Part shown: positions 18,723-35,792 of the stretch, in pieces
Numbering within the stretch: the first letter of the stretch is position 1
Layout of the letters: each line of letters starts with the position of its first letter
Source: a virus
Direction: 5' to 3' (one strand)
IMG/VR virus record: IMGVR_UViG_3300005289_000003
Span: 1 to 64,000 of that record
DNA: 64,000 nucleotides
The notes under the pieces: generated by a model
Database searches by the model: none
The model's input: only the letters and a program-made list of their open reading frames with translations
Told to the model about the DNA's origin: nothing
Made by a program: the position numbers and the translations under genes

Positions 18723-19196
18723 TTACTCTTCCTCTGCCGCTACAGGCTCAGTATCCCCTGACGTGGCTTCCGTAGTCGGGTTGCTCACCCAGACGACTTT
18801 ACAAGGCTTCCCGACACGCCGGACGTAGCGCTCACACCAGCCAACGCCACCGGAGTTGGTGTCTTCCGTGCAGAGGATGACCACGTAATCGGACTTGTCG
18901 ATGATTTCAGCGTTAGTGTCCCTAAAGCCACCGACAGCATCCCACTTATAAACCTTGGTGGGGATGGTCTCGTAATTGACCCGAAGGTTGTGGGCAATGT
19001 CAGTGGCAATTGCCGGAACACCACTGCCGTTAGAGACATAGACGTTATCGTACTTAGCGTCTGCCCCTGAGCAATTGGTATTCATGAATTCAGTGACAAA
19101 CTCACGAACTCTGATTACTTCTTCAGGAGACAGGTCTTTGCTACCCAAAAAAGAAACGTTAGCCACTTGATTTCTCTTCCGCTTTGTCTTGGTCAC
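18723..19196 (-). CDS. SLOG/YspA-like nucleotide-binding protein
   Basis: FLGS..., W....GFRDTN.EII..SD.V, SGG...GKP pattern. Confidence 0.55.
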   Translation of the reverse strand: MTKTKRKRNQVANVSFLGSKDLSPEEVIRVREFVTEFMNTNCSGADAKYDNVYVSNGSGVPAIATDIAHNLRVNYETIPTKVYKWDAVGGFRDTNAEIIDKSDYVVILCTEDTNSGGVGWCERYVRRVGKPCKVVWVSNPTTEATSGDTEPVAAEEE

Positions 19197-20433
19197 GTAG
19201 GTCTAGATACTTGTCATAACTTATTTCTCTGATGATACCTGCTGTTGGTTCATAATGAAGGTGAATGGTGATTCCACCTTCACCATGCCTGTTTTTCACA
19301 TTCTTTAGAATCATTGTTCTTTTGCTGGTGAGCCTGTTAGCAAATACGGACGTGGCATCCTGCCCGATACTGTCACCACGGGCCAAGTGCTCAGGACCAC
19401 CCGGATCATCTCTCTTGGTGGCAGCATCACGGTTTAGCTGTGCTGCACAGATGATAGGAATTCCGTATTCATTCGCAAGGATAGTCAGGTCATTGGACAG
19501 TTTTACTACAGAGGACCAGTCTTCACCAGCCATCTTCATCAAGGTGATGTAGTCAATGTAGACAATATCTGGCTCATTGCGTTCTATTTGTCCCTGGACA
19601 TCCAAAACCCCCATCCGGCCCTTAGATGAATCCATGACGTGCATCCGGCTACGTAGGTTCTTCCTTAGCCCCTGAAGGAACTTACGGTATTCAGCCGGAT
19701 CGATGTTTTTGCCTTGTGCCAAACTGATATTGTCGAATACCTTATTCCCATATTGCTTGGATAGTAGGGCGTGGACTCTTCCGGATACCTGAGCACGGGG
19801 CATTTCCAGAGAGTCAAACTGAATGCTCTTGCCAGCGATAAGGGCCGTAACCGCCATGCTAAGAAGCAACCATGATTTACCTTGGCCTAGACGGGCAGAG
19901 ACGATGTGGAGCCCAGTAGTAAACCCGCCTATCCGTTCATCAAAGGTTGGGAAGCCAGTGGGGATACCGGCGAATCCTTCTTCCTCATATTTTTGTTTAC
20001 GAAGAAGAAATTCCTTATAGTCTGTTTCCCAATCCCCAATAATGTCGTTATCGTGCATAACGTTACAGACCGAAGCGACTTTGATAGCCCCGGTATGCAT
20101 CGTCTCTATTGCTTTTTGGACGTTCCCTAGAGACAGTTGGTCGGCAGCCTTGGAAATAACACCACTTGTCAGGATTTCGGAGTGACGTTTCCGGACAAGA
20201 TCGGAATAGTGTCCTACGTCGTCTACCGCGATAACCCGGAACTCTGGGAACTGTGCCTTGAAGGCAGGCTTACTAGGTGCCCTCTTATAGGTGTAGATGT
20301 AGTGAAGAAGCCATTTTCCTTCGTCCGGGAACCCATGGAAGAACTCTTCACTAATGCCCTGGTCCAAGAGGGTTTGATGGTCACCCTGCCGGACGACAGC
20401 AGAGATCAAACCCACTTCGGGAGTACTCGCCAA
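19159..20433 (-). CDS. dnaB: DnaB-like replicative helicase
   Basis: GIPTGF, ARLGQGKS, SLEM, IDY, AQLNR, IGQDA, KNRHG; TTG start with SD GAAAGG. Confidence 0.92.
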   Translation of the reverse strand: MASTPEVGLISAVVRQGDHQTLLDQGISEEFFHGFPDEGKWLLHYIYTYKRAPSKPAFKAQFPEFRVIAVDDVGHYSDLVRKRHSEILTSGVISKAADQLSLGNVQKAIETMHTGAIKVASVCNVMHDNDIIGDWETDYKEFLLRKQKYEEEGFAGIPTGFPTFDERIGGFTTGLHIVSARLGQGKSWLLLSMAVTALIAGKSIQFDSLEMPRAQVSGRVHALLSKQYGNKVFDNISLAQGKNIDPAEYRKFLQGLRKNLRSRMHVMDSSKGRMGVLDVQGQIERNEPDIVYIDYITLMKMAGEDWSSVVKLSNDLTILANEYGIPIICAAQLNRDAATKRDDPGGPEHLARGDSIGQDATSVFANRLTSKRTMILKNVKNRHGEGGITIHLHYEPTAGIIREISYDKYLDLRDQDKAEEKSSG

Positions 20434-20840
20434 AGGTGTTAACCGCCTTTCCAGAGCACAAAAAAAGGTGAGCGGTGGAGGGCCACCCAGGACCCGCCAC
20501 CATCTCACCCGTTCGCGCGGTAGTCGACTATGCGTAGGGCACATCACTTCACATAGCCCGTTGACCCGATGTCCTAGGACTACCGGCAACGGAATAGTAA
20601 CAAAACTTTCCGAAGTGCGCAATAGGTGAGCTATGTTTACTTTTGTCCGAACTGTACTCAACTGTCCTATATGCCCGGTTCGTGCTGTCCGGACACCTAC
20701 CCGATCATGGTTGCTCGGGAGCAAGAAAACCAGGCAGGAGAGTCAGCATAGCTCCCTGACCTGGAACGATGCTACTTCTTGACAGACTGACGGGTGGTCT
20801 GATATATGCGGGACGTTCCTAAAAAATCTTGGGAACGTCC

Positions 20841-20869
20841 TTGACACGTGACCACAGGTTCCGTAAGTT
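20841..20869 (+). promoter_or_regulatory. strong promoter heading the ncRNA/tRNA region
   Basis: TTGACA-17-TAAGTT; second TTGACA at 20779. Confidence 0.7.
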
Positions 20870-21117
20870 CGTTCCTGTCAGCCCGGCAGGATGGCACAGA
20901 CCACCTAGACCACTGACACACGTAAGACCCGCATGACGCACCAAATCAAGACAGTAAGGCACGTACGCACGAAGCAAGACAGCATCGCCGCACTACCTGT
21001 AAGGCACGGTACGACACGCACACGAGCGGCAGGAGCAAGGCCAGCGGATACCAACCGCATGGCTGCCAGAGGGCTTTACAGAGCCTCTGGGGCTATACGG
21101 GCTAGGTCCGTGCAACC

Positions 21118-21832
21118 TCTCACTAAGCAACCGGTGTGACCCAACAGAAAAGACATGGCTAGTAATAATAAGCTTGCCCTTTGGCAGGGGTAAGGCGAAG
21201 CATCCCGCGACCGGGAAGGGTACCCCGGTGGGAAACCATGTCCGCCTAGCAGTCTTAGGCATACTAAATAGTGAGTGACTGAATGACGATAACAGTCACG
21301 ACGTGGCACCTTTTAAGGTACACCTATGTAAGTAGTGGGTGCCACTGGATTGACTGTCAGAGTTACTGTGCTCCGTTATGTCATCAGAGGATTGGTTCCG
21401 AGACGTATAGCCGCCGGTAGGGAGTACCTATCGATACGGGTACGCGGTATAACGCTAGCCCTACTAGTAAGTTGAGTACGGCCATGTAGGGCATGGTCCT
21501 ATGCTCCGCCATTTTCTCTGGTGACGTATCGGAGCACAGTCACTCCTATAGATGTGGCTAGGCTCCATTCTAATGGCGTTTCCGGTGACACGTTTATGTC
21601 AAAAGGTGGGGCCTAGTCGCGTAGCTGCAATAACCCAGTTGATATAACTGGGGGTATCCCTTCTGAGTAATACAAAGTACGTCGGTAGATCTCCTGGTCT
21701 TGTATCCGTACTGTGGCAAGAATCTGGACCGAAGATAAAACTTCAATTCGGATTGGCGCTCACCACACTAGACCTTGGCTAAGGCGCGTCGGACGTCTAT
21801 AAGTAGGAGTATAAGAACACACCACATCCGAC
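21118..21832 (+). ncRNA. candidate large structured ncRNA (~700 nt)
   Basis: no credible ORF; many long helices with G-U pairs, e.g. 21360-21391 with 21513-21545. Confidence 0.65.
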
Positions 21833-21836
21833 ACAT

Positions 21837-21910
21837 GCCCCGGTAGCTCAATCCGGCAGAGCGCCACTCTTACAAAGTGGATGTTAGAGGTTCAACTCCT
21901 CTTCGGGGTA
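21837..21910 (+). tRNA. tRNA-Val(TAC)
   Basis: cloverleaf, loop CTTACAA. Confidence 0.92.
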
Positions 21911-21913
21911 CGG

Positions 21914-22040
21914 CACACATGGCGCTAAATCTCAAAATGGGGTATTGGCATTGCGCCATCAGATGTAGCGAAGGTTTGAATAGGCCGGAAACAGTTATGC
22001 CGCTGGGTTCTGTTCATTCCAAGTAACTACGCCATGTGTG
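21914..22040 (+). ncRNA. unassigned structured RNA
   Basis: 11-bp terminal stem CACACATGGCG/CGCCATGTGTG. Confidence 0.55.
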
Positions 22041-22051
22041 TAATTAAAACA

Positions 22052-22114
22052 GGGCAAGGGGTCCGGACTGTATAAACCGGCTTAAACGGCACTGTGGTGT
22101 GCCCTTGCCCACCA
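22052..22114 (+). ncRNA. mini RNA with acceptor-like stem and encoded ACCA
   Basis: GGGCAAGGG/CCCTTGCCC followed by ACCA. Confidence 0.45.
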
Positions 22115-22284
22115 TTAAGATATTGGGAGCGCTGATAGTAGGCAATTCAGGAAGAAGGTTGCGGAGTCCAAGGACTGTGAAACAACTCTTCTTAGGAACC
22201 CTGGATAGGGCCACTGGGTGATGGCAGCGTAACGGCCGATAGCGGGTGATTCGGCTACACACGTCTCTAAGAGGAAGTAGAAGC

Positions 22285-22500
22285 GTGTCTCCAGAAGAGC
22301 AAAAGGTAGTCAAGGCTTCTGCTGACTTGGAAGACCTAGCAGCAGAGCTACGGGACATCATCAACGAAATGCGTCAGCGTCCAACTGATACGGCTTACGC
22401 CTATGCCCTGACTTATAACTTCAGGACTGATCTAGGGCGTGTGGTGGCTTCCCTGGGGGCTGGTAAGCCGAGCATGAAGGTAATGAATGGAAAGCACTAG
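22285..22500 (+). CDS. hypothetical protein
   Basis: GAGGA SD before GTG. Confidence 0.55.
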   Translation: MSPEEQKVVKASADLEDLAAELRDIINEMRQRPTDTAYAYALTYNFRTDLGRVVASLGAGKPSMKVMNGKH

Positions 22501-22698
22501 ACGGGCAGTGGGCGCGATAGCTGCCAACCTAGTAAGTAAGCCGCCCCCCGGCTTTCACTGAACGGTGAACCAAAACGCGCTAAGGGAACCTAGTCCGTTT
22601 ACGGTATGGGAGCGGGCCACGTCCTAGGTGAGGGTTTAGAGGACATTCCCCGTGGGGTCTGTTTGCAGGCTTAAAACCACAAACCCACGGGGCTTCAT

Positions 22699-22770
22699 GC
22701 GGTCATAGCTCAATTGGCAGAGCGCCAGACTTCCAATCTGGTGACCGGGGTTCAATTCCCCGTGGCCGTT
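22699..22770 (+). tRNA. tRNA-Gly(TCC)
   Basis: cloverleaf, loop CTTCCAA. Confidence 0.92.
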
Positions 22771-23022
22771 CTGTTCCCCATAGGTCCGGCAGACTAAAGG
22801 GGAACCGTCTATCCACCTTAGACGTTAAATATGCGTGGTTTATCCCTGCCAATTGGTTAGGGGTACGTCTTTCTCCTCTGACGTTAAACGAGGATGACGG
22901 CCGATGGTACGGCGGTTTGCATTGCTGTCTGGGAGTGGGTACCCAGATGGAACCGACACGAGTTAAACCCATATAGGGAGTGGTCGGACCGTACCACCAT
23001 AAGCTTCAAAGGAGGAGTATAG

Positions 23023-23253
23023 ATGGTTACCATTTACTTCCCTGCCTACACAGCTAAGTTCAAGCTTCAGGATCGGGTTTACCTGACCAACAAGATTTCA
23101 TCAGGTCTGGGGACTGTAGTCGGCATCCACGCTCCATGGTCGATTGGCTTTGTAAGCGTTGGCGTTCGATACTCCGTCTCCTGGGATCGGAACAGGAAGA
23201 CTCTCAACGGTCCGGCCATGGAATCCGAAGAGGAATTGTCTAAGGTGATCTGA
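23023..23253 (+). CDS. small KOW/SH3-like hypothetical protein
   Basis: AAGGAGG SD; KFKLQDRV...GTVVG...YSVSW. Confidence 0.7.
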   Translation: MVTIYFPAYTAKFKLQDRVYLTNKISSGLGTVVGIHAPWSIGFVSVGVRYSVSWDRNRKTLNGPAMESEEELSKVI

Positions 23254-23474
23254 TGCCCAGAGCTAAGGCGACTCATCCTTTCCACCTGGTTCAGGTCGGT
23301 ATTCCTTCGTACAACCCGCTAGAAGAGAAGCCTGTCTTGCGCATCACTGCGATAGACGAAAAAGACGGCAGGTTATTGGAGGGAGACTTCACCCCAGAGG
23401 AATTTAGAGTCTGGGCAGCCTCCTTGAACAAGTGGGCTGATCTATACGACGATATGGTTAGTCGCAAGAAGTAA
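23253..23474 (+). CDS. hypothetical protein
   Basis: TGATG coupling. Confidence 0.65.
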   Translation: MPRAKATHPFHLVQVGIPSYNPLEEKPVLRITAIDEKDGRLLEGDFTPEEFRVWAASLNKWADLYDDMVSRKK

Positions 23475-23539
23475 TACTTGTGGTCCCGATGAAAATAGCC
23501 ACTAGTGCCACGGTCAAGGTTCGGGATAGCCGTTGGTAT

Positions 23540-23612
23540 GGGGTCATAGCTCAGATGGAAGAGCGGAGCACTGAAAATGCTCAGGTCCGTGGTTCGATTC
23601 CACGTGTCCCCA
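23540..23612 (+). tRNA. tRNA-Phe(GAA)
   Basis: cloverleaf, loop CTGAAAA. Confidence 0.92.
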
Positions 23613-23662
23613 CGGGAGGCCCTGAGAGGGCTCCTAACAAGATCACCTTTGAAGGGGGTGTC

Positions 23663-24073
23663 ATGGCAGCGTCAGCAACCCCTCGGGTCCGTACGGCCCG
23701 TTCAGGGGCTTCCAAGAAGGCAGCTACACCAGTAGCCGACCCCATGGTTGTGGAGATGGACTTCAAGCCAAGTTCCGGGGCACGCTTCGTCTACGATCCG
23801 GAAGACATTCCGAAGATTGTGATGGCCTTTGAGGGGCTACACGCGATCCTCTCGGCTGAATTCCTGGCAGAGGCCAAGACTCCGGATATCGTCAAGGTTC
23901 TGGTAGACAACGGCTATACCCTGTCGACCACCAGTGACCCGAAGTATGGGGCACTGTATGAAGGCCCGTTCATCACCTTGACCTACAAGAAGACTCTTCT
24001 TCGTCTGTCCGTGGTGGTTACCAAGGACAGCATCAAGGCAGACTTCCGGACCTATTACGAGACCAGAGGATAA
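23663..24073 (+). CDS. hypothetical protein with basic N-terminal tail
   Basis: GAAGGGGG SD before ATG 23663. Confidence 0.7.
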   Translation: MAASATPRVRTARSGASKKAATPVADPMVVEMDFKPSSGARFVYDPEDIPKIVMAFEGLHAILSAEFLAEAKTPDIVKVLVDNGYTLSTTSDPKYGALYEGPFITLTYKKTLLRLSVVVTKDSIKADFRTYYETRG

Positions 24074-24137
24074 GTTTCCTTCAGGGAATTGATGCCCCAG
24101 GATTTGCGCCATGCGTCCTGGGAGTCCCTGAAGGAGC

Positions 24138-24249
24138 GGCAGGGAAGGAAGCGCGGGCAATCCCCCACACGTGCCCGTGAGACTCTGGCTCCCCGTGGTT
24201 CCCTGATTGGACGACAGGGTTAATCTTCGTGGTAGCTTCCTTCCCTGTC
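24138..24249 (+). ncRNA. unassigned structured RNA
   Basis: 15-bp terminal stem GGCAGGGAAGGAAGC/GCTTCCTTCCCTGTC. Confidence 0.55.
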
Positions 24250-24255
24250 AGTTAG

Positions 24256-24331
24256 GCCCCTGTAGCCAAGTTCGGGGAAGGCATCCGTCTTATACGCGGA
24301 AGATACGTTGGTTCAAATCCAACCAGGGGTA
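24256..24331 (+). tRNA. tRNA-Ile(TAT)
   Basis: cloverleaf, loop CTTATAC. Confidence 0.85.
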
Positions 24332-24640
24332 CTGTTTTTGACCTATCCACTTACCCTAGGGAATCATTTAGTGAAGCACACGCACACGTGCCAGAATGCA
24401 GACTGTAAGAAAGTGTTCTACTGTACTGGCACGGGAGAACACCAGAGTGAATGCACGCATTGTGGAAACAAATATACCTTCACAAGCTAGGGGTTAATGG
24501 GTGGCTTCTCACTCGCACACATGTCAGAACACGTCATGTGGCAAGACGTTCCAATGCAATAAGGTAGGACCCCACACGTTGGCGTGTCCTGATTGTGGTT
24601 CCGATACATCAGGCCACACGCACGCTCACTAATTTCATAA

Positions 24641-24713
24641 TCCCCTGTGGTCTAATCTGGCAAGACATCGGATTTTGGTTCCGATCATCTAGGTTCAAAT
24701 CCTGGCAGGGGAG
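24641..24713 (+). tRNA. tRNA-Gln(TTG)
   Basis: cloverleaf, loop TTTTGGT. Confidence 0.9.
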
Positions 24714-24738
24714 CGGCATTGCGAAAGGAGGATTGCGA

Positions 24739-25335
24739 ATGCCGGGTTTCAACCCTGATGGCTCTTATAGAGTCTTTGATTCTGAAGCGGAAAGACTAGA
24801 AAACCAAGAGGCTGTAAGAAGAATCATTCAGGGTTTGCACACCAAGTATCCTGACCCGAGGGTAAGCCCACGTCCGGGTAATCCTGAAAAATGGGTTGGG
24901 AGTCTGAAGATGCCCAAAAAGATAGAGTTCAAAGATGGTGTGTTCCAATACGTGGGACCGCCAACCAAATCGGAAGGTACTGAAAACAAAATGGCGCGTG
25001 ACAGTGGTATGGACGTCAAGAGCTACAGCCCGTCGGACCCCAAGTTCGCCAGTGACGAGACTCCTTTCGAAGTCGGCCAGATCATCTCCATCGTGGGTCG
25101 CCACGGCGAGAGCGGTACCCACCTGCTGATCACGGACGTTCAGGCAGACACGGAGGTTCGTCACGAGGGTTCACCGGTCGGTGGCACCTACTACACCGGC
25201 TACGCTTCCAACGATTACGACCGTTCCACCCAGGTCATCAAGGTGGAGAACGGCACGGCCGTGACCGTGTGGACCGAGTACGACGTTCCGGTTACCCCGA
25301 AGGGTCTCCAGTCGCTTTCCTTCCCGAAGCGGTGA
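24739..25335 (+). CDS. hypothetical protein (possible second start at 24991)
   Basis: AAGGAGG SD at 24725. Confidence 0.65.
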   Translation: MPGFNPDGSYRVFDSEAERLENQEAVRRIIQGLHTKYPDPRVSPRPGNPEKWVGSLKMPKKIEFKDGVFQYVGPPTKSEGTENKMARDSGMDVKSYSPSDPKFASDETPFEVGQIISIVGRHGESGTHLLITDVQADTEVRHEGSPVGGTYYTGYASNDYDRSTQVIKVENGTAVTVWTEYDVPVTPKGLQSLSFPKR

Positions 25336-25424
25336 CCCTGACCTGATACCCAGGTCTAGATAAGCTCCTACCGGTCGACAGACGACATAAGCCCTGTTAC
25401 GGCAACGTCGGGCCGGTAGGTCTA

Positions 25425-25496
25425 GCCTCTATAGCTCAACGGATAGAGCACCGTGCTACGAACGCGGGTGTCCAGGTTCGATTCCTGGTAGAGGTA
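25425..25496 (+). tRNA. tRNA-Arg(ACG)
   Basis: cloverleaf, loop CTACGAA. Confidence 0.92.
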
Positions 25497-25662
25497 CGCA
25501 ATAAAACTTCCAGCAATGGCTATAGGGTCGATCCGGACGTCTCCCGGTAGGTTGCTGGTTGGCTTGTATGACACGGGTGAGCAATTGCTATTGTGGAACT
25601 TGCCTCCACAAAGAACCAACCCTCCCAAGGCATGGGCTCAGAATGGTTGGCCGTGTCATTAT

Positions 25663-25736
25663 TCCCCGTTAGCTCAACTAGGCAGAGCAACGCACTGTTA
25701 ATGCGTCGGTTGAATGTTCGAATCATTCACGGGGAG
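25663..25736 (+). tRNA. tRNA-Asn(GTT)
   Basis: cloverleaf, loop CTGTTAA. Confidence 0.92.
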
Positions 25737-25739
25737 CCT

Positions 25740-25886
25740 AGTCCCCAATGCGTCAAACTGATTGCCGATATTTGTAAGGTCGTGGTATCGCAGCATGAGG
25801 CAAGGTAGGTTGTAGCTATGTTTTCGCACCTTGGACATAGTTATACGGTGCTCCTAACCAATAGACCTTCCTGCGCATTGGGGACT
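25740..25886 (+). ncRNA. unassigned pseudoknotted RNA
   Basis: 13-bp perfect terminal stem; two potential loop pairings. Confidence 0.6.
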
Positions 25887-26185
25887 TCAAAGCATCCTGA
25901 CGTCAGTCAGGAGCGAAGCATCCTAGGGAGAGTGATACGCCAACACCACTAATACGTGTCCCGTGAGCCCTAGGTAAGTCGGGACGTTGGCAGATTGGGT
26001 AAAAGGGCAAGCTTCCGTTTAGGTGGTGACAGCCGAGAGAAGAAGCCTGGGCACCCTAGGGTTAGATGAGGCAATATAGCGTTGACCTGACCCGTAGGAC
26101 TGTCACCCTGTAGCGCGATGGAAGAATACGCATGCGCGATAGTCGTACTTCTAGGGTGCCACCCAATCGTTACATTGGAGACTAA

Positions 26186-26518
26186 ATGATAAAGTTTGGT
26201 GTCTTTGCTAAGACATTGGAAGAAGCCTGGTTCAAGGCTCACAACGAAGCAAAGCTCTTCTTCGGTGAGTCCAGGGTTCATAGCGTCAGGTTTCTGGGTG
26301 GCACCAAAGAAGATGATGACGCCTATTACTGCACCTTTGCCGCAGACTTGGTAAATGATGCGGATGCGGTTTCTGAGTACTACCCAACGGGTCGGCCATC
26401 TTCTCCGCCACCTTTCGAACCTCTGACTACTCCTCTGCCACTCTTGGAGGCCACGGCGATAATCGGGCCTACCACAGAGGAAAGAGAAGTCCTCAGAGTC
26501 AGCTATACAACCGAATAG
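26186..26518 (+). CDS. hypothetical protein
   Basis: GGAG SD. Confidence 0.6.
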   Translation: MIKFGVFAKTLEEAWFKAHNEAKLFFGESRVHSVRFLGGTKEDDDAYYCTFAADLVNDADAVSEYYPTGRPSSPPPFEPLTTPLPLLEATAIIGPTTEEREVLRVSYTTE

Positions 26519-26525
26519 ATGGCTT

Positions 26526-26610
26526 GCCATGGATGCACGCATGGGACGTGCGCCAGTCTGTAGAACTGGTGTCTAACAAGGCTAAGTAGGTTCGATTCCT
26601 ACCCGTGGCA
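26526..26610 (+). tRNA. atypical tRNA-Tyr(GTA)
   Basis: loop CTGTAGA; long variable arm; non-canonical D arm. Confidence 0.7.
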
Positions 26611-26612
26611 CT

Positions 26613-26719
26613 GGAGACAATGAGGATAGAGCAGAGTCCCTAACCCGTAAGGGTGGGACGGTTTCCATAGCTGGCCACCGGCGAAACTCTGCTTTCACGG
26701 TTCAATTCCGGAGTCTCCT
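26613..26719 (+). ncRNA. tRNA-like RNA, TLD-type (copy 1)
   Basis: acceptor GGAGAC/GTCTCC, T-loop TTCAATT, long helix replacing the anticodon arm. Confidence 0.6.
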
Positions 26720-26745
26720 CTATTCAAAAACTATAAGGAGTATTT

Positions 26746-26955
26746 GTGGGCAGAGCTACACACACGACAACCACGATTAGGCGAATCATTGTTGGTCAAG
26801 AGTTCTATCTCTCTATCGACGGAGTCACCGCTTACAAGCTCCTGACCAAGTCAGACATTGGTGGAGCAAGCTACAACGTCACCTTCAAGCGTGCAGACAA
26901 TGAAGGTGAAACCGAGCATGGAGACTGGCCGTACAACACCAAGGTCTACATCTGA
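26746..26955 (+). CDS. small hypothetical protein (family ending VYI)
   Basis: AAGGAG SD; IRRIIVGQEF...TKVYI. Confidence 0.75.
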   Translation: MGRATHTTTTIRRIIVGQEFYLSIDGVTAYKLLTKSDIGGASYNVTFKRADNEGETEHGDWPYNTKVYI

Positions 26956-27260
26956 CGGGGTCATGCCTGTTGGCCCGTTGCTGGTGAGCCTGTAGGCGAG
27001 CGGAGCACACCAGCCCAAAGAGGCTCACCTTTGCAGGGGTAGAGCCTCAATAGGTGGCCCCCGTGACGGTACCCAGAAGCCACGTGGTAGGGCTCTGGTG
27101 AGCTACCGGGGGCAGAGGCCCTAGGTTGTGTTCCAGCCCTTCCTAGGGCCTCTCAGACGTCTCTGTGGGAGCTTCCCTGTCCCCCCGTCAGGGCCACAGA
27201 GACAGGGGGAACCCTGGTGGGTTCCACTCCCCCCGGAATTCCTAGGGTTCCCCCGTTCAA

Positions 27261-27333
27261 GCGTCGTTAGCTTAATTGGTAGAGCTACGGTCTCCAAAAC
27301 CGTCAGGTGAGGGTTCGAATCCCTTGCGGCGTG
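27261..27333 (+). tRNA. tRNA-Trp(CCA)
   Basis: cloverleaf, loop CTCCAAA. Confidence 0.9.
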
Positions 27334-27479
27334 CTCCAAAGGAGGAAACTATATGAGCAAAAATATATCTGGTATGGAGTGTGGCTGCATGCTGGTTATT
27401 GAGTACGGTAAAGCGCCGTACATCATCAGGCACGCTAATTGCAAGAAGGCCCACGGCACACCAGAGAAGAAGAATTGAC

Positions 27480-27983
27480 ATGACCATGTCAGATGCCGAT
27501 CACATGCACCCGCATGTGGCTAGGGCTCTTCACGATGCTTTGAAGAGTGGGGACTACAAGCAAGGTCACAACTTCCTTCACAAGGTAATGAAGGACATAG
27601 GTGATCTTTACTGCTGCTTGGGTGTCCTTTGCCGGCTAGCCATTAACGCTGGCGTAGTGGTTCCTCAGGAAGAGTTCAATCTAGGGAACGGCAATCAGGT
27701 AGTCATCAAGTATGAAGGTGATGACGGGTGGCTTGGCCTGATAGTCAGTGAGTGGGCCGGAAAGCACGCTACTCCTTCTTATAGGCTTCCTCTCTGGTAC
27801 GACGAAGAGAAGAAGATTCCTTTTGCTGGGGACCTTGACGAAGAAATGGACCGTATTACTCTGGCCATCTTGAATGATGGAGATAGCAATAGGTTCCATG
27901 GTCTGACATTCTCTCAAATAGCCGACATCGTTTTGTTCATGTGGGGATACGGCGATGAAGACGAAGTATCGGCTAACGATTAG
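27480..27983 (+). CDS. hypothetical protein (CCLGV motif)
   Basis: ALKSGDYKQG...YCCLGVLC...LND...TFSQIAD. Confidence 0.75.
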   Translation: MTMSDADHMHPHVARALHDALKSGDYKQGHNFLHKVMKDIGDLYCCLGVLCRLAINAGVVVPQEEFNLGNGNQVVIKYEGDDGWLGLIVSEWAGKHATPSYRLPLWYDEEKKIPFAGDLDEEMDRITLAILNDGDSNRFHGLTFSQIADIVLFMWGYGDEDEVSAND

Positions 27984-28125
27984 ACGGAGTAACGGAAGAC
28001 TCGTTCGCGAATACGGCAACCTGAGCAAGTACGCGGCTAAAGTCCGTAGAGATGAACTAGAAGACAAATACGATTCCGGCTATTACGTCGAATTGACACC
28101 CGATAGGAAACCCAATGCTGAATAA
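27955..28125 (+). CDS. 56-aa hypothetical protein (not in ORF track)
   Basis: MKTKYRLTIRRSNGRLVREYGNLSKY...; overlaps both neighbours. Confidence 0.55.
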   Translation: MKTKYRLTIRRSNGRLVREYGNLSKYAAKVRRDELEDKYDSGYYVELTPDRKPNAE

Positions 28126-28402
28126 TCCAGGTCTCGTCTACGTCTGCTACATGGTCAGTGGGGACCAGGAGCCACGGCCCATCAAGGTGGGTCTGACGTA
28201 TGACGAAGCCTTGAAGGAAGTCAACGCGAATAAGAGGGCTGTCAAAACCGTACTCAGGTTCGCGTGGATCGCTGGCCTGTTCAGTAAGGAAGCGCGCAAG
28301 AACATGCAAACCCTGAAGGGTGTGAAGTACTACATCACGGGGTACCGGCCCACGGCGGTCAACAACCTTGCCACGGTGGATGAGGAGTGGGCAGAACAAT
28401 AA
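28115..28402 (+). CDS. hypothetical protein
   Basis: ORF in operon. Confidence 0.65.
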   Translation: MLNNPGLVYVCYMVSGDQEPRPIKVGLTYDEALKEVNANKRAVKTVLRFAWIAGLFSKEARKNMQTLKGVKYYITGYRPTAVNNLATVDEEWAEQ

Positions 28403-28410
28403 GGAAATAA

Positions 28411-28483
28411 GCCCCATTAGCTCAGTGGACAGAGCGACACCCTTCTAAGGTGAAGGCCGTAGGTTCGACTCCTACATGGGGTA
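28411..28483 (+). tRNA. tRNA-Arg(TCT)
   Basis: cloverleaf, loop CTTCTAA. Confidence 0.92.
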
Positions 28484-28485
28484 CG

Positions 28486-28584
28486 GGGGCACGATGTGGA
28501 AACGCGGGGAAGTAGGAAACAGTTTCTTCCTCCTTTATGTTTCCTATGATGACCGTTGTCACGGTTCGATTCCGGGGTGCCCCT
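28486..28584 (+). ncRNA. tRNA-like RNA, TLD-type (copy 2) with anti-SD loop
   Basis: GGGGCAC/GTGCCCC acceptor, TTCGATT T-loop, hairpin loop containing TTCCTCCTTT. Confidence 0.65.
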
Positions 28585-28960
28585 CTATTCACTCTGAAGA
28601 GTGACCTGTAAGCACACCTATAAGTAGACTCTCCCTTCTGTCTGGCAGGATAAGAGCCACGGCTAGCATGCTGTCTGTGGTGACTGAAACTGCCCCGTAC
28701 GCGGAGAATGGCAAAGGGAGCGCATGTCACGCCACTGTGGATGAGTCATAGCCCTACCGAGTGCGCCGGTTCTAAGGGGTTAGGCGTTCGTCCGGAAGAG
28801 CGCTGGAACGAATGAGGGCCTACTAGGTGGAGTCGATTGGACTACTCGGGTCAGGTTGTCTAGGGTCTTAGAGCTGACGCAACCTGATGCAAAAGGGACG
28901 GGTAGGAGACTGAGAAGCCGATAATGTAGGCCCTCATTTGTTTTGTCCAAAGGAGGAAAA

Positions 28961-29287
28961 ATGACAGATTTCATTATTGGCTGGATTCTTCCACCATTGA
29001 TGGTTATCGTGCTAGTAATCATGAATGTGTGTGGATACATGACAAAGAAGGGATACGATAAATACGTATGCCTGTCATGGGGAATAATGGCTATTTATTC
29101 TCTCGTCAAGGTTGATATCGGCGGGATAATCATCTACCTTACTTTTTCTCTTTATCACGGTTACAAGTGGTGGAAGAACCGCAAGGATGACGACTGGACC
29201 GACAAGGGTAACAAGCCAAAGCGGAAGCGTTCCCGTAACTGGGTTCCGAAGCTAAAGAACCCTGAACCAACAAAGTCGGTGGTGTAG
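28961..29287 (+). CDS. membrane protein
   Basis: AAAGGAGG SD; TM segments then WWKN..DDDW motif. Confidence 0.7.
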   Translation: MTDFIIGWILPPLMVIVLVIMNVCGYMTKKGYDKYVCLSWGIMAIYSLVKVDIGGIIIYLTFSLYHGYKWWKNRKDDDWTDKGNKPKRKRSRNWVPKLKNPEPTKSVV

Positions 29288-29388
29288 TGGCGACCGAGAA
29301 GCGTCCGCTAAGTTGCGGTTGTGTCCTGGTATTCGTGGATGGCAAGTTTTCACATCAGGACGTTAAGAACTGCAACAGAGGGCATTAG
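29287..29388 (+). CDS. 33-aa Cys/His microprotein
   Basis: TAGTG coupling; SCGC...C..GH. Confidence 0.5.
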   Translation: MATEKRPLSCGCVLVFVDGKFSHQDVKNCNRGH

Positions 29389-29482
29389 TTATTAATGGGT
29401 GGGCGAGGAAGACACCGCGCGTGGTCGGTGCTTGGAAACCGCCCTATGCCTCTGCACCAGATAGCCAGAGGTAGCCACGCAT

Positions 29483-29569
29483 GGGGAGTTGGCAGAGTGG
29501 CCGAATGCACTAGTCTTGAAAACTAGAGGGGCCTTAAAACCCCCAAGGGTTCAAATCCCTTACTCCCTT
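29483..29569 (+). tRNA. tRNA-Ser(TGA)
   Basis: loop CTTGAAA, long variable arm. Confidence 0.9.
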
Positions 29570-29570
29570 C

Positions 29571-29681
29571 GTGATACAAGAAGATGGTTGTACCTGCTGC
29601 GAGGATGGCGGGTTTACCGAGGGATATGGTAATAGCCATCGGTGCGGCAATTGTGGACACACTGAAGGAGCCCATAAGTAA
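29571..29681 (+). CDS. CxCC/CxxCxH..H microprotein 1 (36 aa)
   Basis: MIQEDGCTCCEDGGFTEGYGNSHRCGNCGHTEGAHK. Confidence 0.7.
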   Translation: MIQEDGCTCCEDGGFTEGYGNSHRCGNCGHTEGAHK

Positions 29682-29821
29682 TGGCCGAATGTACCTGTTG
29701 CACAAATGGTGCCTTTGTTGAAGGACTCAACCCGAACCTGTGTAACAACTGCTTTCACCTGAAGTCGCTTCACTCCATCGTGGTGAGCTTCTTCAAGTTC
29801 TGGAATAGGATTAGCTTCTGA
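29681..29821 (+). CDS. CxCC/CxxCxH..H microprotein 2 (46 aa)
   Basis: MAECTCCTNGAFVEGLNPNLCNNCFHLKSLH...; TAATG coupling. Confidence 0.8.
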   Translation: MAECTCCTNGAFVEGLNPNLCNNCFHLKSLHSIVVSFFKFWNRISF

Positions 29822-29934
29822 TGGGTGTCTGTATCTGCTGCCTCTTTGGTGACTTCAAGGGTGGTGGCGAAAAGGACATCAAGGATATATGCGGGTGTGG
29901 CCATCACAGGAAAGACCACCAGAAGAGGTTTTAA
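29821..29934 (+). CDS. CxCC/CxCxH..H microprotein 3 (37 aa)
   Basis: MGVCICCLFGDFKGGGEKDIKDICGCGHHRKDH...; TGATG coupling. Confidence 0.8.
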   Translation: MGVCICCLFGDFKGGGEKDIKDICGCGHHRKDHQKRF

Positions 29935-30047
29935 TGTTCTTCTTTCTCTTCGGAGCATGTAGTTGCTGCTTGGCAGGCTCCTTCTCTGAGGGTGGCAACG
30001 ACGGTAAGTGCTCCCTCTGCAATCACACGTACGGAGCACACACCTAG
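29934..30047 (+). CDS. CxCC/CxxCxH..H microprotein 4 (37 aa)
   Basis: MFFFLFGACSCCLAGSFSEGGNDGKCSLCNHTYGAHT; TAATG coupling. Confidence 0.8.
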   Translation: MFFFLFGACSCCLAGSFSEGGNDGKCSLCNHTYGAHT

Positions 30048-30052
30048 AAATA

Positions 30053-30141
30053 GGTAGGGTGGCAGAGTGGCCTATTGCGCGTCCCTGCTAAGGACGTAAG
30101 GGAACAACACACCTTCCAGGGTTCGAATCCCTGCCCTACCG
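30053..30141 (+). tRNA. tRNA-Ser(GCT)
   Basis: loop CTGCTAA, long variable arm. Confidence 0.92.
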
Positions 30142-30169
30142 CGCACCATTAAAAAGGAGGAAATAAAGG

Positions 30170-30286
30170 ATGCTTTGGTACCTATTTGCAGGTTGCTACT
30201 GTTGCTTCATCGGTGACTTCATCGAGAGTGATAGCGACCGGAAAACCTGCAAGAGATGTACGCATGTGAGGGGTGCTCATTCTTAA
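30170..30286 (+). CDS. CxCC/CxxCxH..H microprotein 5 (38 aa)
   Basis: AAGGAGG SD; MLWYLFAGCYCCFIGDFIESDSDRKTCKRCTHVRGAHS. Confidence 0.85.
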   Translation: MLWYLFAGCYCCFIGDFIESDSDRKTCKRCTHVRGAHS

Positions 30287-30432
30287 TGGGCTCTTGCTCA
30301 TGCTGTAACTCTGGTGGATTCGAAGCTAGCGCTACAGCCCTCATTTGCAAACATTGTCTTCATGTCAGGTCTGCTCACTCTGGCTACTTCCACTACATGG
30401 CTTCCTTCCTCCGCTACATGACAGGAAGGTAA
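30286..30432 (+). CDS. CxCC/CxxCxH..H microprotein 6 (48 aa)
   Basis: MGSCSCCNSGGFEASATALICKHCLHVRSAH...; TAATG coupling. Confidence 0.8.
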   Translation: MGSCSCCNSGGFEASATALICKHCLHVRSAHSGYFHYMASFLRYMTGR

Positions 30433-30509
30433 ATAGCGTGGAGTATGACGGGCCTCCACGGTGGTGAACGTGCGGCCGTAGGTAGCCACCGAAACAAATC
30501 CCGTCAAAT

Positions 30510-30585
30510 GCCCCCGTAGCTTAGCCGGGTTTAAAGCGCCACCCTGTCAAGGTGGAGACCGAGGGTTCAAATCCCTTCGGGGGCG
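30510..30585 (+). tRNA. tRNA-Asp(GTC)
   Basis: cloverleaf, loop CTGTCAA. Confidence 0.92.
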
Positions 30586-30732
30586 CGTGCTACGTAATGG
30601 CAATTGCGTAGAGTCTGTGGTCAGCAACCGCCAATTGCTCCGCGCGACAGACACGCATTACGTGTGGCCGAGTGACCGGCAATGCTTTGGTGGTGGAGAT
30701 GGTCACGCTGCCTACCAGAGAGCCACACGGAA

Positions 30733-30806
30733 CGGGTCATAGCTCAATTTGGTGGAGCGCTTGGTTTGGGACCAAGAGGTTACAGGTTCAAATCCTGTTG
30801 GCCCGA
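30733..30806 (+). tRNA. tRNA-Pro(TGG)
   Basis: cloverleaf, loop TTTGGGA. Confidence 0.92.
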
Positions 30807-30902
30807 CGCGAAAGGAGGAATGATGCGTAGATTCCTGGAAGAGCTTCTAGAGAGAATCGCGGACATGAACGACAACGACACGAGAGAGCTTGGCAAGGAT
30901 CG

Positions 30903-31091
30903 GTGAGTATAGCCACCTTTGGAATCTTTTGTTTCCTCTGGTTGGCCGCTGCTTACTCGCTCTGTATTTACTTGATAAAGACAGTTCGGGACGACACGTT
31001 TAACCTTAGGGTCACAATTGCTTGCTTCTCTGTCCTGATACCTGTGGGCATCCTGCTACTGGTGGTGTCCTTTGTGTCAGTGGTGACTTAG
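30903..31091 (+). CDS. small two-TM membrane protein
   Basis: AAGGA SD; hydrophobic. Confidence 0.6.
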   Translation: MSIATFGIFCFLWLAAAYSLCIYLIKTVRDDTFNLRVTIACFSVLIPVGILLLVVSFVSVVT

Positions 31092-31114
31092 CAAGATTTG
31101 AAGGAGGAATTGAG

Positions 31115-31282
31115 ATGGGTTTCGCGATAGCCATAGTCGTCATGCTCGTTGCCCTGGTGGTTGTGATGTCTGCTCTACTGGCGGTTGACCAGCACATCCG
31201 GAACAGGCCACCCTTGGCCCCCACCATCAAGCAAGACATTGCTGAAGCGGTGGAGCGTTACCGGACGGAGCTTTACCAGTGA
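31115..31282 (+). CDS. small membrane protein
   Basis: AAGGAGG SD. Confidence 0.65.
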   Translation: MGFAIAIVVMLVALVVVMSALLAVDQHIRNRPPLAPTIKQDIAEAVERYRTELYQ

Positions 31283-31924
31283 GCTTGGTTGAAGCGATAT
31301 ACGAAACCGCGCTACTAGACATCCTGGTTGCCCTGGAAGCGGGACACCCTGAAGAAGCCGCCAGGATGGCCCGTAAGGCTCTGGGAGTACCTGACCCATC
31401 CAAGGACACCCAGGACGGTTCAGAGGCTGTCAGCGTGGCTCCTGGGGGCCTTCATGGGCTCAGTGGGCTTGAGACCTTGCCGGTACTTGTCAGGGACTCA
31501 GGGGGTATGCCCGTCAGGGGTAACGGGCTACCTCCAATCAATTGGCGTCGTCCGTGGATGAGGAAACGGTGAGCTTCTTCCGCCGTAGATTTTGGATCCG
31601 AAGTCCAGAGCAAAAAGCTTTCGCCAGGATCGTTGCCCTTGGGTGTGAGCTTCTTCAGGAAGAGTTTCCTGAACTCTCAAAGAGGGAGTTCGACGTAATA
31701 GCGGTGACGATCCTGGAAGAGCTAATGGAGTCGGATCCGGATACTCTCATTAGTCCCTCTTCGCTCGTGTGGCGCGTGAGAGAACGGGTCAGGTCTTCTA
31801 GGCTCTGATTTCGTGTGGTCTGCCTGAGGGACACTGAAGAGGGCAGGGTAACGATGGACACATAAGAGCGTGGCTCTCTAAAAGCACGTCGCTGCCCAAC
31901 CATCGCCGCACCAATGGATAAGGT

Positions 31925-32254
31925 ATGGACGAAGTAGACACTGTTAAAAGAGAAGTGTCAATAAAAGGTCAGTGGGTTGACCGGATTGTTAAAGACCCAG
32001 ACTTGTCGGAAAGAGAGAAACTTCTCCTTCTGGTTATTAGTAACTTCATGAATAGATCAGGTATAGCTTTTGTCAATAGGATGAATGTTGCTGCCTATAG
32101 TGGCATTAGCTCTGCTAAGATCAAAAGCATGGTAGAAAGTCTAGCCGAAAGACATTACCTATCCGTTAGATTCACACTCCCTGGTACAAACACAAAGAAC
32201 AGTCCAAATTATAGGAAGTTTGAAGTTCACGGATTGATAGAAGCGGATGGGTGA
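31925..32254 (+). CDS. winged-HTH DNA-binding protein
   Basis: DPDLS..EKLLLL.I...A..SG.S...I...V.SL...YL pattern. Confidence 0.6.
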   Translation: MDEVDTVKREVSIKGQWVDRIVKDPDLSEREKLLLLVISNFMNRSGIAFVNRMNVAAYSGISSAKIKSMVESLAERHYLSVRFTLPGTNTKNSPNYRKFEVHGLIEADG

Positions 32255-32257
32255 AGC

Positions 32258-32437
32258 ATGAAGGCTGGACACATCAACGTAGGCAATGGCTTTAAGTGGA
32301 CACCAGACGATGATGATTGCGTCTGTGTGGGCAGAGAAGACGAACCAGATGAGACCAGGATTCGCATCATCTGGCGCTATAAGGACAGTCAGAGCAATTA
32401 CACCACTTCGGTATCAAGAGAAGACACGCTTTATTAA
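32258..32437 (+). CDS. 59-aa member of the small beta-barrel-like family (not in ORF track)
   Basis: MKAGHINVGNGFKW... Confidence 0.6.
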   Translation: MKAGHINVGNGFKWTPDDDDCVCVGREDEPDETRIRIIWRYKDSQSNYTTSVSREDTLY

Positions 32438-32446
32438 GGAATAACT

Positions 32447-32686
32447 ATGGGTTTCAAGTTGCGTACTTACTCCAGTGTCGCACTGTTGGTAGCGCTTATC
32501 CTGACTGCTGCTATCCTGGCGAGTTGCAAGCCTGCCGGTAGCCTTTCGGGGCCTCCCCTGGGTGTCTGCAAGTACAAGGCAAATGCCGTGGTCCTGAAGG
32601 ATGACGGTAAGTGGAAGTGCTACAGCACCAAGAAGCAGAATGGCGTCACGGTCCTGGTCCGTCAGAAGACTTGGGACAAGAAGTAA
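32447..32686 (+). CDS. putative lipoprotein
   Basis: signal peptide with LASC lipobox. Confidence 0.65.
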   Translation: MGFKLRTYSSVALLVALILTAAILASCKPAGSLSGPPLGVCKYKANAVVLKDDGKWKCYSTKKQNGVTVLVRQKTWDKK

Positions 32687-32899
32687 ATGGGGTTTTGGAG
32701 CAACGACGCTCCGAAGCAGAAGTATGGAACCCTAGGAGTGCGTTCGGAATTCAAGTTCAGCCCTAGTGGATATACCTGTATCGTCACTGGGGTATCCAAT
32801 GGTGCATACGGCAAACTAGTCATCACCTATAAGATAAAGGGTGGTGATGGTGGTACCGCCAGTATGGATGTCTACCCAACCGAGAGTTGTTACCTATGA
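32687..32899 (+). CDS. small hypothetical protein (beta-barrel-like family)
   Basis: YGTLGVRSEFKF... Confidence 0.65.
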   Translation: MGFWSNDAPKQKYGTLGVRSEFKFSPSGYTCIVTGVSNGAYGKLVITYKIKGGDGGTASMDVYPTESCYL

Positions 32900-33090
32900 C
32901 TCCTGATGAACTGGCGGAATTTGCCGGTAGGTTTATGTTCCTGCTAGACAAAGACTGGGTTTACCGCGCTCCTGAGACGTTCATCAAGCCTGCCCGTATC
33001 TGGTGGGCTCTAGCGAATAAGAATTGGGAGATGGCAAACCGGTTGCTATCGGAGCTTGAATCCGATAGCGTCTAAACAACTGAATACATG

Positions 33091-33162
33091 GTGTCTGTGG
33101 CAGAGTGGCTATGCACTGGATTGTGGGTCCAGACCACGTGGGTTCAAATCCCACCAGACACA
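33091..33162 (+). tRNA. tRNA-His(GTG)
   Basis: loop TTGTGGG; G at -1; A73 instead of the usual bacterial C73. Confidence 0.88.
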
Positions 33163-33163
33163 C

Positions 33164-33307
33164 GAGGTACCGAAGCGAAGAAGACGGATACTTCAATGGA
33201 TAAACCGTAGGTCGTTGGTTCAAATCCAACCCTCCCAACCATTGGGAGGTAGCTCAGTGGTTAGAGCAACGGTGAAAAGACTGTCTTCGATTATTTCTCG
33301 GTACCTC
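33164..33307 (+). ncRNA. Y RNA 1, YrlA-like (circularly permuted tRNA domain)
   Basis: terminal stem + GAAGCG-N8-GGATACTTC...TATTTCTC; T arm, acceptor, D arm order. Confidence 0.85.
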
Positions 33308-33313
33308 CCAGTT

Positions 33314-33453
33314 TGGCACTGAAGCGGAAGGTAAGGGTTACTCCTAATATGAATAGGGTAGACCAGGTTCGAATCCTGGCCGCTCCACAATAAGGGGCGG
33401 TAGTGTAATGGCAGCACACTAAAAATACCCAAACCTAATATTTCTCAGTGCCA
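33314..33453 (+). ncRNA. Y RNA 2, YrlA-like (circularly permuted tRNA domain)
   Basis: same conserved helix; CCAGG-TTCGAAT-CCTGG, then acceptor, then D arm. Confidence 0.85.
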
Positions 33454-33460
33454 CCCAGTT

Positions 33461-33585
33461 TGACCCGAAGCGTAGTAACTGGTTACTTCTCTCCGCCAGG
33501 GCCTAGCCCGGAGGGCACCTACTTCCAAGCTTTTAAACTTGGTTTCGTAGGAACCTGTGTGCCAATTACGATATTTCTCGGGTCG
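33461..33585 (+). ncRNA. Y RNA-like 3 (non-tRNA insert)
   Basis: GACCCGAAGCG-N8-GGTTACTTC...TATTTCTCGGGTC. Confidence 0.78.
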
Positions 33586-33592
33586 CCTAGAC

Positions 33593-33758
33593 GGCTTCAG
33601 AAGCGAAGAGAGAAGATACTTCTACAGAGAAAGAAAGTCCGTCCGACCAACGGCGCGCTACCTACTCCACACGTCATTGAGTAGGAGCAAGGGTGTAATT
33701 ACCAGATGTTGTGATTTGTTAATACCACCCGTCTTTTCTCAAGTATTACTCTGAAGTC
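33593..33758 (+). ncRNA. Y RNA-like 4 (non-tRNA insert)
   Basis: GGCTTCAGAAGCG-N8-AGATACTTC...TATTACTCTGAAGTC. Confidence 0.75.
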
Positions 33759-33765
33759 TCCTTGT

Positions 33766-33858
33766 TGGGTCAGAAGCGGACGGATAGGTTACTTCACAAA
33801 CACCACTATTAATGGTGTCTCTAAGAGACAAACTTATTCGAATTATTTCTCTGACCCA
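33766..33858 (+). ncRNA. Y RNA-like 5 (short insert)
   Basis: TGGGTCAGAAGCG-N8-GGTTACTTC...TATTTCTCTGACCCA. Confidence 0.78.
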
Positions 33859-33862
33859 CCCT

Positions 33863-35787: not shown

Positions 35788-35792
35788 ATGAT

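Follow-up and report, generated by a model that had tools for sequence, protein, structure and literature searches.

What kind of molecule, if any, is specified by the DNA that lies between a replicative helicase gene and a long series of tRNA genes in the virus record IMGVR_UViG_3300005289_000003 of IMG/VR? The record is a complete 86,444-bp phage genome with direct terminal repeats, and the window analysed here is its first 64 kb (positions 1 to 64,000). The question centres on 715 nt of the + strand (21118..21832), in which a preliminary description, made from the letters, had seen a large structured non-coding RNA (ncRNA) at the head of the tRNA region, perhaps of a new class. We favour a plainer reading, to which we give a probability of roughly one half: the interval would be the structured core of a ~0.96-kb untranslated leader that heads an early tRNA operon. 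This explains the same facts with fewer assumptions than one ornate RNA of ~700 nt or a new class.

The stretch is non-coding. Apart from tRNA-Val, positions 20752-22284 hold no credible gene. Taking the 90th percentile of wrong-frame open reading frames (ORFs) as the limit, no ORF in 20752-22245 has a codon score that exceeds it, and the small ORFs from 22246 on do. The stretch has no Shine-Dalgarno-led ORF of at least 15 amino acids (aa), its ORFs gave no match in a PHROG search, and they are not among 5.8 to 15 billion predicted proteins, the phage's own contig included. Each + strand frame contains all three stop codons, and reading any one of them as sense leaves all six frames closed; stop-codon reassignment was therefore rejected as a route to an open frame. 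Protein-coding genes were likewise rejected, as no frame has a ribosome-binding site, coding-like codon usage or a protein homologue. The earlier remark that ~1 kb here lacks a convincing ORF is borne out by all of these tests.

An early-type promoter (20821..20869, +) points into the interval, as had been noticed before. It consists of the upstream element AAAAAATCTTG, a -35 box TTGACA (20841-20846), a 17-nt spacer and a -10 box TAAGTT (20864-20869), with a predicted start at ~20876. The design (AAnAATCTTG, ~10 nt, TTGAC) is found in four copies in the window, at 1367-1391 (+), 2136-2160 (+), 20821-20846 (+) and 57816-57840 (-); the copy at 20821-20846 differs in spacing by one base from the other three. 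The copies at 1367 and 2136 (+) precede ordinary Shine-Dalgarno-led genes near the genome end, and that at 57840 (-) precedes a 170-nt leader and then tRNA-Glu. Downstream of the promoter come a C/A-rich, weakly structured 5′ part with repeated GTAAGGCACG(G)TACG motifs (20876..21117, +), the interval itself and tRNA-Val(TAC) (21837..21911, +; ARAGORN; Rfam tRNA 64.3 bits), the structure ending 4 nt before the tRNA gene. The interval is thus contiguous with tRNA-Val and on the same strand, with the operon promoter upstream. No + strand terminator-like site was found in 20300-22400, thus none between the promoter and the first tRNA. This is the layout of a tRNA-operon leader. A further link is the 18-nt motif ACTAAATAGTGAGTGACT, which lies at 21263..21280 (+) and, as an exact copy, at 57629-57646 (-), where 0.06 chance matches are expected at up to 3 mismatches. 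The second copy ends ~8-10 nt upstream of tRNA-Glu(CTC), with an extended match of 21/22, and both copies are downstream of the same promoter type. The leaders of tRNA-Val and tRNA-Glu therefore have a signal in common, to which no meaning is assigned.

The + strand of the interval has a minimum free energy (MFE) of -275.5 kcal/mol, compared with -227 kcal/mol for its dinucleotide shuffles (z -7.3); a repeat run gave an excess of 46 kcal/mol and z -8.8. The - strand reaches z -3.7, and its MFE differs from that of the + strand by 32 kcal/mol. A modest advantage over shuffles is general in this genome: in 25 control windows of 715 nt, z ranged from +0.8 to -5.8 and the energy excess from +4 to -36 kcal/mol. 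At -46 kcal/mol, the candidate has the largest excess among the 26 windows. The signal is carried by ~270 nt that hold two long hairpins, within 21300-21625. For 21300-21550, z is -7.5 (+) and -4.6 (-); on either side it is -2.4 (21118-21300) and -2.8 (21550-21832), near the genome background, and the C/A-rich 5′ part of the leader has z -1.3. By this thermodynamic measure, the excess is statistically solid for ~270 nt and ordinary for the remainder.

All the helices named in the preliminary description are there, with positions that agree to within a few bases. The longest closes a 186-nt element (21360..21545, +), in which 32 positions (21360-21391 with 21514-21545) surround a 122-nt branched insert (21392-21513) with pair probabilities of 0.87-0.98. 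It is made up of 27 Watson-Crick pairs, 3 G-U pairs and 2 mismatches, with no A-C, in agreement with its description as a ~32-bp helix whose deviations are mostly G-U; a repeat search recovers 30 nt of it at 87% complementarity. The best 30-nt ungapped stem has 26 Watson-Crick pairs (28 with G-U) versus at most 21 (25) in any of 200 shuffles. Thus, the helix is far beyond chance. The second long hairpin (21552..21622, +; 17 + 6 bp, pair probabilities 0.96-0.99), the arms of which (21553-21567/21607-21621) were also named earlier, contains 7 G-U pairs and is therefore well formed only on the + strand. Among the non-Watson-Crick positions of the two long helices, 8 are G-U and none is A-C, a count to be read with the caveat that hairpins picked by folding the + strand are biased towards G-U. 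Together with the strand difference in MFE, it favours an RNA read from the + strand, in line with the original argument from G-U bias.

The remaining helices are less distinctive. CTCACTA/TAGTGAG (21119-21125/21269-21275, +) and GACATGG/CCATGTC (21152-21158/21236-21242, +) can be read from the sequence and lie outside the MFE fold, in a 5′ part where helices have low pair probabilities. The same part contains a 9-bp hairpin, CUUGCCCUU/AGGGGUAAG (21173..21194, +), with a mean pair probability of 0.88. GTGACTG/CAGTCAC (21275-21281/21293-21299, +) was likewise read from the sequence. It is followed by the hairpin GUGGCACC/GGUGCCAC (21303..21345, +; the helix named before is GTGGCACC 21303-21310/GGTGCCAC 21338-21345), which is in the centroid structure and has competing alternative pairings. 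Three hairpins at 21634-21652 (CCCAGTT/AACTGGG), 21676-21712 and 21721-21754 (21634..21754, +) have pair probabilities of 0.84-0.87, and a last one, GUCGGA 21788-21793/UCCGAC 21827-21832 (21788..21832, +), ends 4 nt before tRNA-Val and is outside the MFE fold. Long-range pairs reach probabilities of 0.57-0.78, and their lengths are such as chance would supply. The claim of nested helices throughout is thus right as to their presence, but the excess is confined to ~270 nt and the enclosing helices are not part of the minimum-energy fold. The predictions support a chain of hairpins, two of them exceptional, and do not establish a globular fold of 700 nt.

As the preliminary description had suggested, the 4227 covariance models of Rfam 15 were run with cmscan: the whole window was scanned at the gathering threshold, 20700-24300 more permissively at E up to 10, and 24300-40000 at E up to 5. 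At gathering thresholds, Rfam reports only tRNAs in the window. In 20700-21836, no model matched even at E up to 10, the nearest match being tRNA-Val; group I/II introns, RNase P RNA, tmRNA, 6S RNA, riboswitches and small ribozymes were rejected on this basis. GOLLD (RF01998) was rejected because it has no covariance-model match in any scan, although the location beside tRNA genes fits, and ROOL (RF03087) because it has none either. What stands of the proposal of a large structured ncRNA is therefore that the interval is non-coding, lies downstream of a credible promoter, is the most structured + strand window sampled and is neither GOLLD nor ROOL; the part not supported is its extent, since the signal comes from ~270 nt and two hairpins.

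Relatives of the stretch were sought from its sequence and from its neighbours. The gene to its left (19159..20433, -; TTG start, pointing away from the candidate) encodes a DnaB-type replicative helicase of 424 aa (Pfam DnaB_C, E 2.4e-26), the form present in the protein collection (P0001). This helicase and a DnaG-type primase are ~40% identical to their counterparts in Brevibacterium phage Cantare and in the Bendigovirus/Chidieberevirus group of Gordonia phages, so that the virus is an actinophage of a rare lineage and its host is probably an actinobacterium. Among 5.8 billion protein clusters, the only close helicase relative is P0002 (85%, on an 84,276-nt Logan contig), the next being P0003 at 69%, and the lineage is known from essentially two genomes. 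blastn of the candidate against GenBank phages returned nothing at E 1e-5 or at E 10, and GTDB genomes searched with the 69%-identical helicase contained no homologue of the stretch. Exact and degenerate patterns of the long-helix arms found nothing in IMG/VR, GTDB or JGI metagenomes. tRNA-Val anchors gave only unrelated phages in IMG/VR and none in JGI metagenomes, and a single-sequence covariance model of 21356-21549 found nothing outside the window in 531 kb of related loci. Gordonia phage VanLee, found through its Ro60 (see below), was set aside as unrelated in this region. Helicase-anchored IMG/VR loci reached at best 52% helicase identity, with a leader that has no DNA similarity to the one studied here.

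The arrangement, on the other hand, is found again. Two IMG/VR contigs (L012 and L007) with 52% helicase identity have the helicase, then a divergent TTGACC-17-TAGCTT promoter, a leader of ~290 nt (L012:8896-9215 (-), L007:2654-2960 (-), between the promoter-like site and tRNA-Lys) and a tRNA array. Ahead of the array, their promoter also carries a look-alike of the upstream element, GATCTTGAAG...CTTGACC. The two leaders are 79-88% identical to each other and keep helices by compensatory changes (CCTGCC/GGCAGG to CCGGCC/GGCCGG; CATGAT/ATCATG to CACAGTC/GGCTGTG; n = 2). Seven Bendigovirus/Chidieberevirus Gordonia phages (Hanem, Chidiebere, Schomber, Gray, ChisanaKitsune, ScarletRaider and FlyingTortilla) have an unannotated gap of ~1.17 kb at the same position by the helicase. 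It consists of a variable 320 nt, a TTGACT-17-TATTGT promoter and ~730 nt that are very highly conserved (L006:11900-12640 (-) in Hanem) and include two paralogous modules of ~130 nt, the alignment of which folds to a poor consensus. RNAalifold predicts 218 pairs in this stretch, 5 of them with compensatory changes, 11 with one-side changes and 15 with a break; slid controls gave 0-1 compensatory pairs. The reverse strand gives 9, so the counts favour neither strand. An nhmmer profile of the Bendigovirus stretch found nothing in the window or its relatives. The three versions (this phage, L012/L007 and the Bendigovirus group) are mutually unalignable and none matches Rfam. Thus, across this phage group a structured non-coding segment is found behind an early promoter by the helicase, with a sequence that changes from one version to the next. 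Recurrence at the same position supports a function for the stretch; it does not separate a leader from an autonomous RNA.

As an operon leader, the stretch might work as follows. Host RNA polymerase would start near 20876 at the sigma-A-type early promoter and pass through the unstructured C/A-rich 240 nt, the hairpin-rich 715 nt, tRNA-Val and then the remaining tRNA/small-gene region. An RNase P cut between 21836 and 21837, at the 5′ end of tRNA-Val, would free the leader as a separate molecule, for which the 21788-21832 hairpin is a possible 3′ cap. The near-perfect 32-position duplex (21360-21391/21514-21545) is long enough for RNase III, which probably cuts it, and the leader would therefore probably be divided into hairpin-capped pieces. 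The expected products are nuclease-resistant, with the 122-nt branched insert among them, and a role in trans, as a decoy or a protein docking site, is conceivable. Transcription, processing and product stability are all inferred here; the processing steps are drawn from the established maturation of tRNA and rRNA operons and from RNA processing in phages T7 and T4. The stable RNAs of the T4 tRNA cluster (species 1 and 2; rnaC, rnaD) are structured, co-transcribed with tRNAs and freed by the tRNA-processing machinery. The mechanism proposed here is the same, whereas the T4 species measure ~120-140 nt, the present leader measures ~960 nt, and there is no sequence relationship. In rRNA operons and in T7 early transcripts, RNase III processing stems are long near-perfect duplexes that flank an insert in a highly transcribed polycistronic RNA. 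The candidate has such a duplex around an insert, with cleavage only predicted, and differs in that its insert is a 122-nt branched RNA.

Several observations weigh against a leader. Outside 21300-21625, folding is at the level of the genome background, so selection may not have acted on the whole '700 nt'. The - strand also beats its shuffles (z -3.7), and a terminator-like hairpin at 20489-20469 (-) hints at leftward transcription. An untranslated leader of 960 nt is long for a mere spacer, and the leader of L012/L007 is three times shorter. No sequence relative of the candidate was found in these searches, so its helices rest on single-sequence folding. Finally, no RNA run is listed among the sequencing runs that match the stretch.

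We next consider what else the interval could be. It may specify a large structured ncRNA that is autonomous and belongs to a new class, stable at 0.7-1 kb, with a defined tertiary or multimeric fold and functionally comparable to GOLLD or ROOL. Both of these are phage or prophage RNAs often near tRNA islands (bioRxiv 10.1101/2024.12.08.627333), size, position and strong + strand folding fit, and the Bendigovirus/Chidieberevirus phages have their ~730-nt conserved stretch, with some compensatory pairs, at the same position. We nevertheless consider this unlikely: Rfam gives no match at E values as high as 10, the long-range closing helices reach only 0.57-0.78 at chance lengths, the energy signal is local, nhmmer detects no similarity to the Bendigovirus stretch and none was detectable to any other related locus examined, and the lineage is known from essentially two genomes. 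Conversely, the hairpins could be incidental features of spacer or decayed sequence (old genes, tRNAs, a mobile element) with no selected RNA function. Consistent with this, the sequence is an orphan, its folding clearly exceeds the genome background over only ~270 of the 715 nt, z -4.7 to -5.8 is reached by other 715-nt windows of the genome, and the arms of the long inverted repeat look like the ends of a miniature transposon. Against it, shuffles come nowhere near the long helix or the G-U-rich hairpin, and the six-frame ORFs have no protein relative. A miniature inverted-repeat transposable element was rejected because the arms have no second copy in the genome, IMG/VR or 185,579 GTDB genomes (by exact-pattern scans, which diverged copies could escape), and no target-site duplication was seen around the repeat. 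A contig from another run shows 1 difference and 1 insertion over 21152-21356, against 7 differences in the 242 nt just past tRNA-Val, in what is a very small sample. We give little probability to sequence without function. We give still less to a DNA-level element, that is, a replication origin or regulatory region between the divergent helicase-primase and tRNA units, with the palindromes serving as protein-binding or cruciform sites. The position directly beside the helicase and primase genes, the inverted repeats together with the CGTACG-containing motifs at 20955-21020, the better than chance folding of the - strand and the compensatory pairs of the Bendigovirus stretch, as frequent on the reverse strand, would suit such an element. 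The strand asymmetry would not (32 kcal/mol in MFE, z -7.3 versus -3.7), nor would the 7 G-U pairs of hairpin 21552-21622, which are A-C mismatches on the other strand, and there is neither an AT-rich unwinding tract (GC 0.52) nor an iteron family.

The phage also encodes a Ro60/TROVE protein (33977-35584, +), 12 kb downstream of the candidate, with six tandem Y-RNA-like units ahead of the gene (33164-33942, +) that carry 5′ GAAGCG and 3′ TATTWCTC boxes. The terminal stems of the six units covary between units, and unit 1 (33181-33290) matches YrlA (RF02553) at 38.3 bits (E 1.9e-5), below threshold. The 186-nt element 21360-21545 could accordingly be a Y-RNA-like module, though a divergent one, that offers the phage Ro60 a long docking stem and an inserted domain. 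Its 32-position helix around a 122-nt branched insert has the shape of a Y RNA, a long stem with an internal module (PMC4201824). The top of the helix reads 5′ UCAGAGGA and 3′ AUUUUCUCUG; in the same topological place the units read 5′ (C/U/A)GAAGCG, with CAGAAGCG in units 4 and 5, and 3′ UAUUUCUC(U/G/A)G. Units 4 and 5 come close, with 5′ UCAGAAGCG and 3′ UAUUUCUCUG or UAUUACUCUG, and the 3′ strand motif AUUU(U)CUCUG is in common. The Ro60-contacted motif of the 5′ strand is thought to be GNCGAA(N)G (Chen et al., 2014; PMC4201824), here GAAGCG, and it is missing from the candidate: GAAGCG is absent from 20434-22245, the candidate reads CAGAGGAUUGG there, and the place of the internal loop is fully paired. 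No YrlA match, and with it no sign of the tRNA-like domain, was found in 20700-24300 at E up to 10. The element also lies at a distance from the Ro60 gene and exceeds the 80-130 nt of known Y RNAs (PMC4201824). The likeness was, moreover, a post hoc observation, and elsewhere a match to the loose 3′ motif turns up roughly every 3.5 kb; we regard a Y-RNA-like module as improbable. Ro60/Y-RNA complexes tether an exonuclease that degrades structured RNA (PMC4201824), and we speculate that the phage Ro60 system could dispose of structured leader and spacer RNAs.

The wider pattern allows a bolder proposal, which we hold to be doubtful. In it, this lineage and its Gordonia- and Brevibacterium-phage relatives would keep a structured ncRNA of 0.3-1 kb behind an early promoter, divergent from the helicase, with the sequence repeatedly replaced (hence three unalignable versions). 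The version found here would be a new tRNA-island-associated class with a trans-acting function of its own, analogous to GOLLD and ROOL and maybe connected with the Ro60/Y-RNA system. ROOL was described from other hosts, in the rumen and in Lactobacillales. It is a phage-borne large RNA, often near tRNA islands, to which no function is assigned (bioRxiv 10.1101/2024.12.08.627333); the candidate resembles it in these respects and has no RF03087 match. Mycobacterium tRNA arrays are among the reported locations of GOLLD, which can have tRNAs within it (bioRxiv 10.1101/2024.12.08.627333). Like the candidate, GOLLD is of similar size, of phage or prophage origin and beside or around tRNA genes, actinobacterial tRNA arrays included. 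The candidate differs in that it has no RF01998 match at E up to 10 and shows no sign of the universally conserved 3′ domain or the ornate multi-pseudoknot fold of GOLLD. Intergenic non-coding transcripts are among the most abundant phage RNAs of Rhodococcus phage WC1 (nc_1 to nc_3) and mycobacteriophages D29 and Kampy (PMC10986025). They share with the candidate, known here as sequence and with no known relationship to them, that they are intergenic and non-coding in actinophages, and differ in lying at genome ends or mid-genome in temperate siphoviruses.

Phage tRNA islands house GOLLD and ROOL, the largest and least understood bacterial ncRNAs. Should a third, unrelated large RNA sit at the head of an actinophage tRNA island, the class would be widened, and the Ro60 and six Y-like RNAs of the same phage would make it a compact system for asking what such RNAs do in infection. 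If the interval is an operon leader only, it is an example of a long structured precursor, and its removal may depend on RNase P and RNase III, and perhaps on the Ro60/Y-RNA machinery that degrades structured RNA. At present it is a lead, not a result, because the structural evidence on the candidate is single-sequence thermodynamics.

Rightward of the helicase gene, and on the strand opposite to it, lie 23 + strand tRNA genes (21837-37998), of which tRNA-Val is the first, mixed with small coding-like ORFs and the Ro60/TROVE gene. Past tRNA-Val lies a second non-coding stretch of moderate structure (21912..22284, +; z -2.65 (+), -1.3 (-)) that has no coding-like ORF. The first protein gene after the leader (22285..22500, +; 71 aa, codon score 0.285), to which no function is assigned, is the right limit of the non-coding block. 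Its product is identical over 71 aa to P0121 and 87% identical to P0122, which is encoded on the same 84,276-nt Logan contig as P0002; the phage's own small protein was found on 7 contigs. Scanned in 200-nt windows, the + strand shows other strong folding excesses at 27001-27400 (z -6.0), 38201-38500 (-5.8), 31501-31800 (-4.2) and 20401-20900 (-4.6), the first of which overlaps tRNA-Trp and its upstream flank.

Short contigs 95-100% identical to 20997-22800 of the window come from a 2020 run, two 2025 wastewater libraries and the 2012 soil sample of origin, so the phage recurs in different habitats. On 20997-21399, near-identical contigs of ~200 nt come from one other run and from two wastewater libraries that are labelled RNA-Seq cDNA and were judged to be probably DNA. 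The sequencing runs were picked by words from the same stretch and the contigs show neither ends nor strand, so they can be read neither for expression nor for conservation.

Contig L012 has an extra 430 nt upstream of its leader and a weak tmRNA-like match at 8142-8212. The terminator-like hairpin near the helicase (20469-20489, -) has a T7 run and lies ~35 nt ahead of the start codon of the helicase gene. It may mark the end of a leftward transcript or belong to a structured 5′ untranslated region of that gene. Directly upstream of the -35 box, the inverted repeat GGACGTTCCTAA/TTGGGAACGTCC (20811..20840; 12-nt arms, 92% complementary) is a possible operator. The CGTACG-containing repeated motifs GTAAGGCACGTACGCACG, GTAAGGCACGGTACGACACG and CACGTACGCGCACGCACGTACGCGCG, found at 20919-21020 (+) and 57930-57960 (-) near two promoters of the same family, could be regulator sites.

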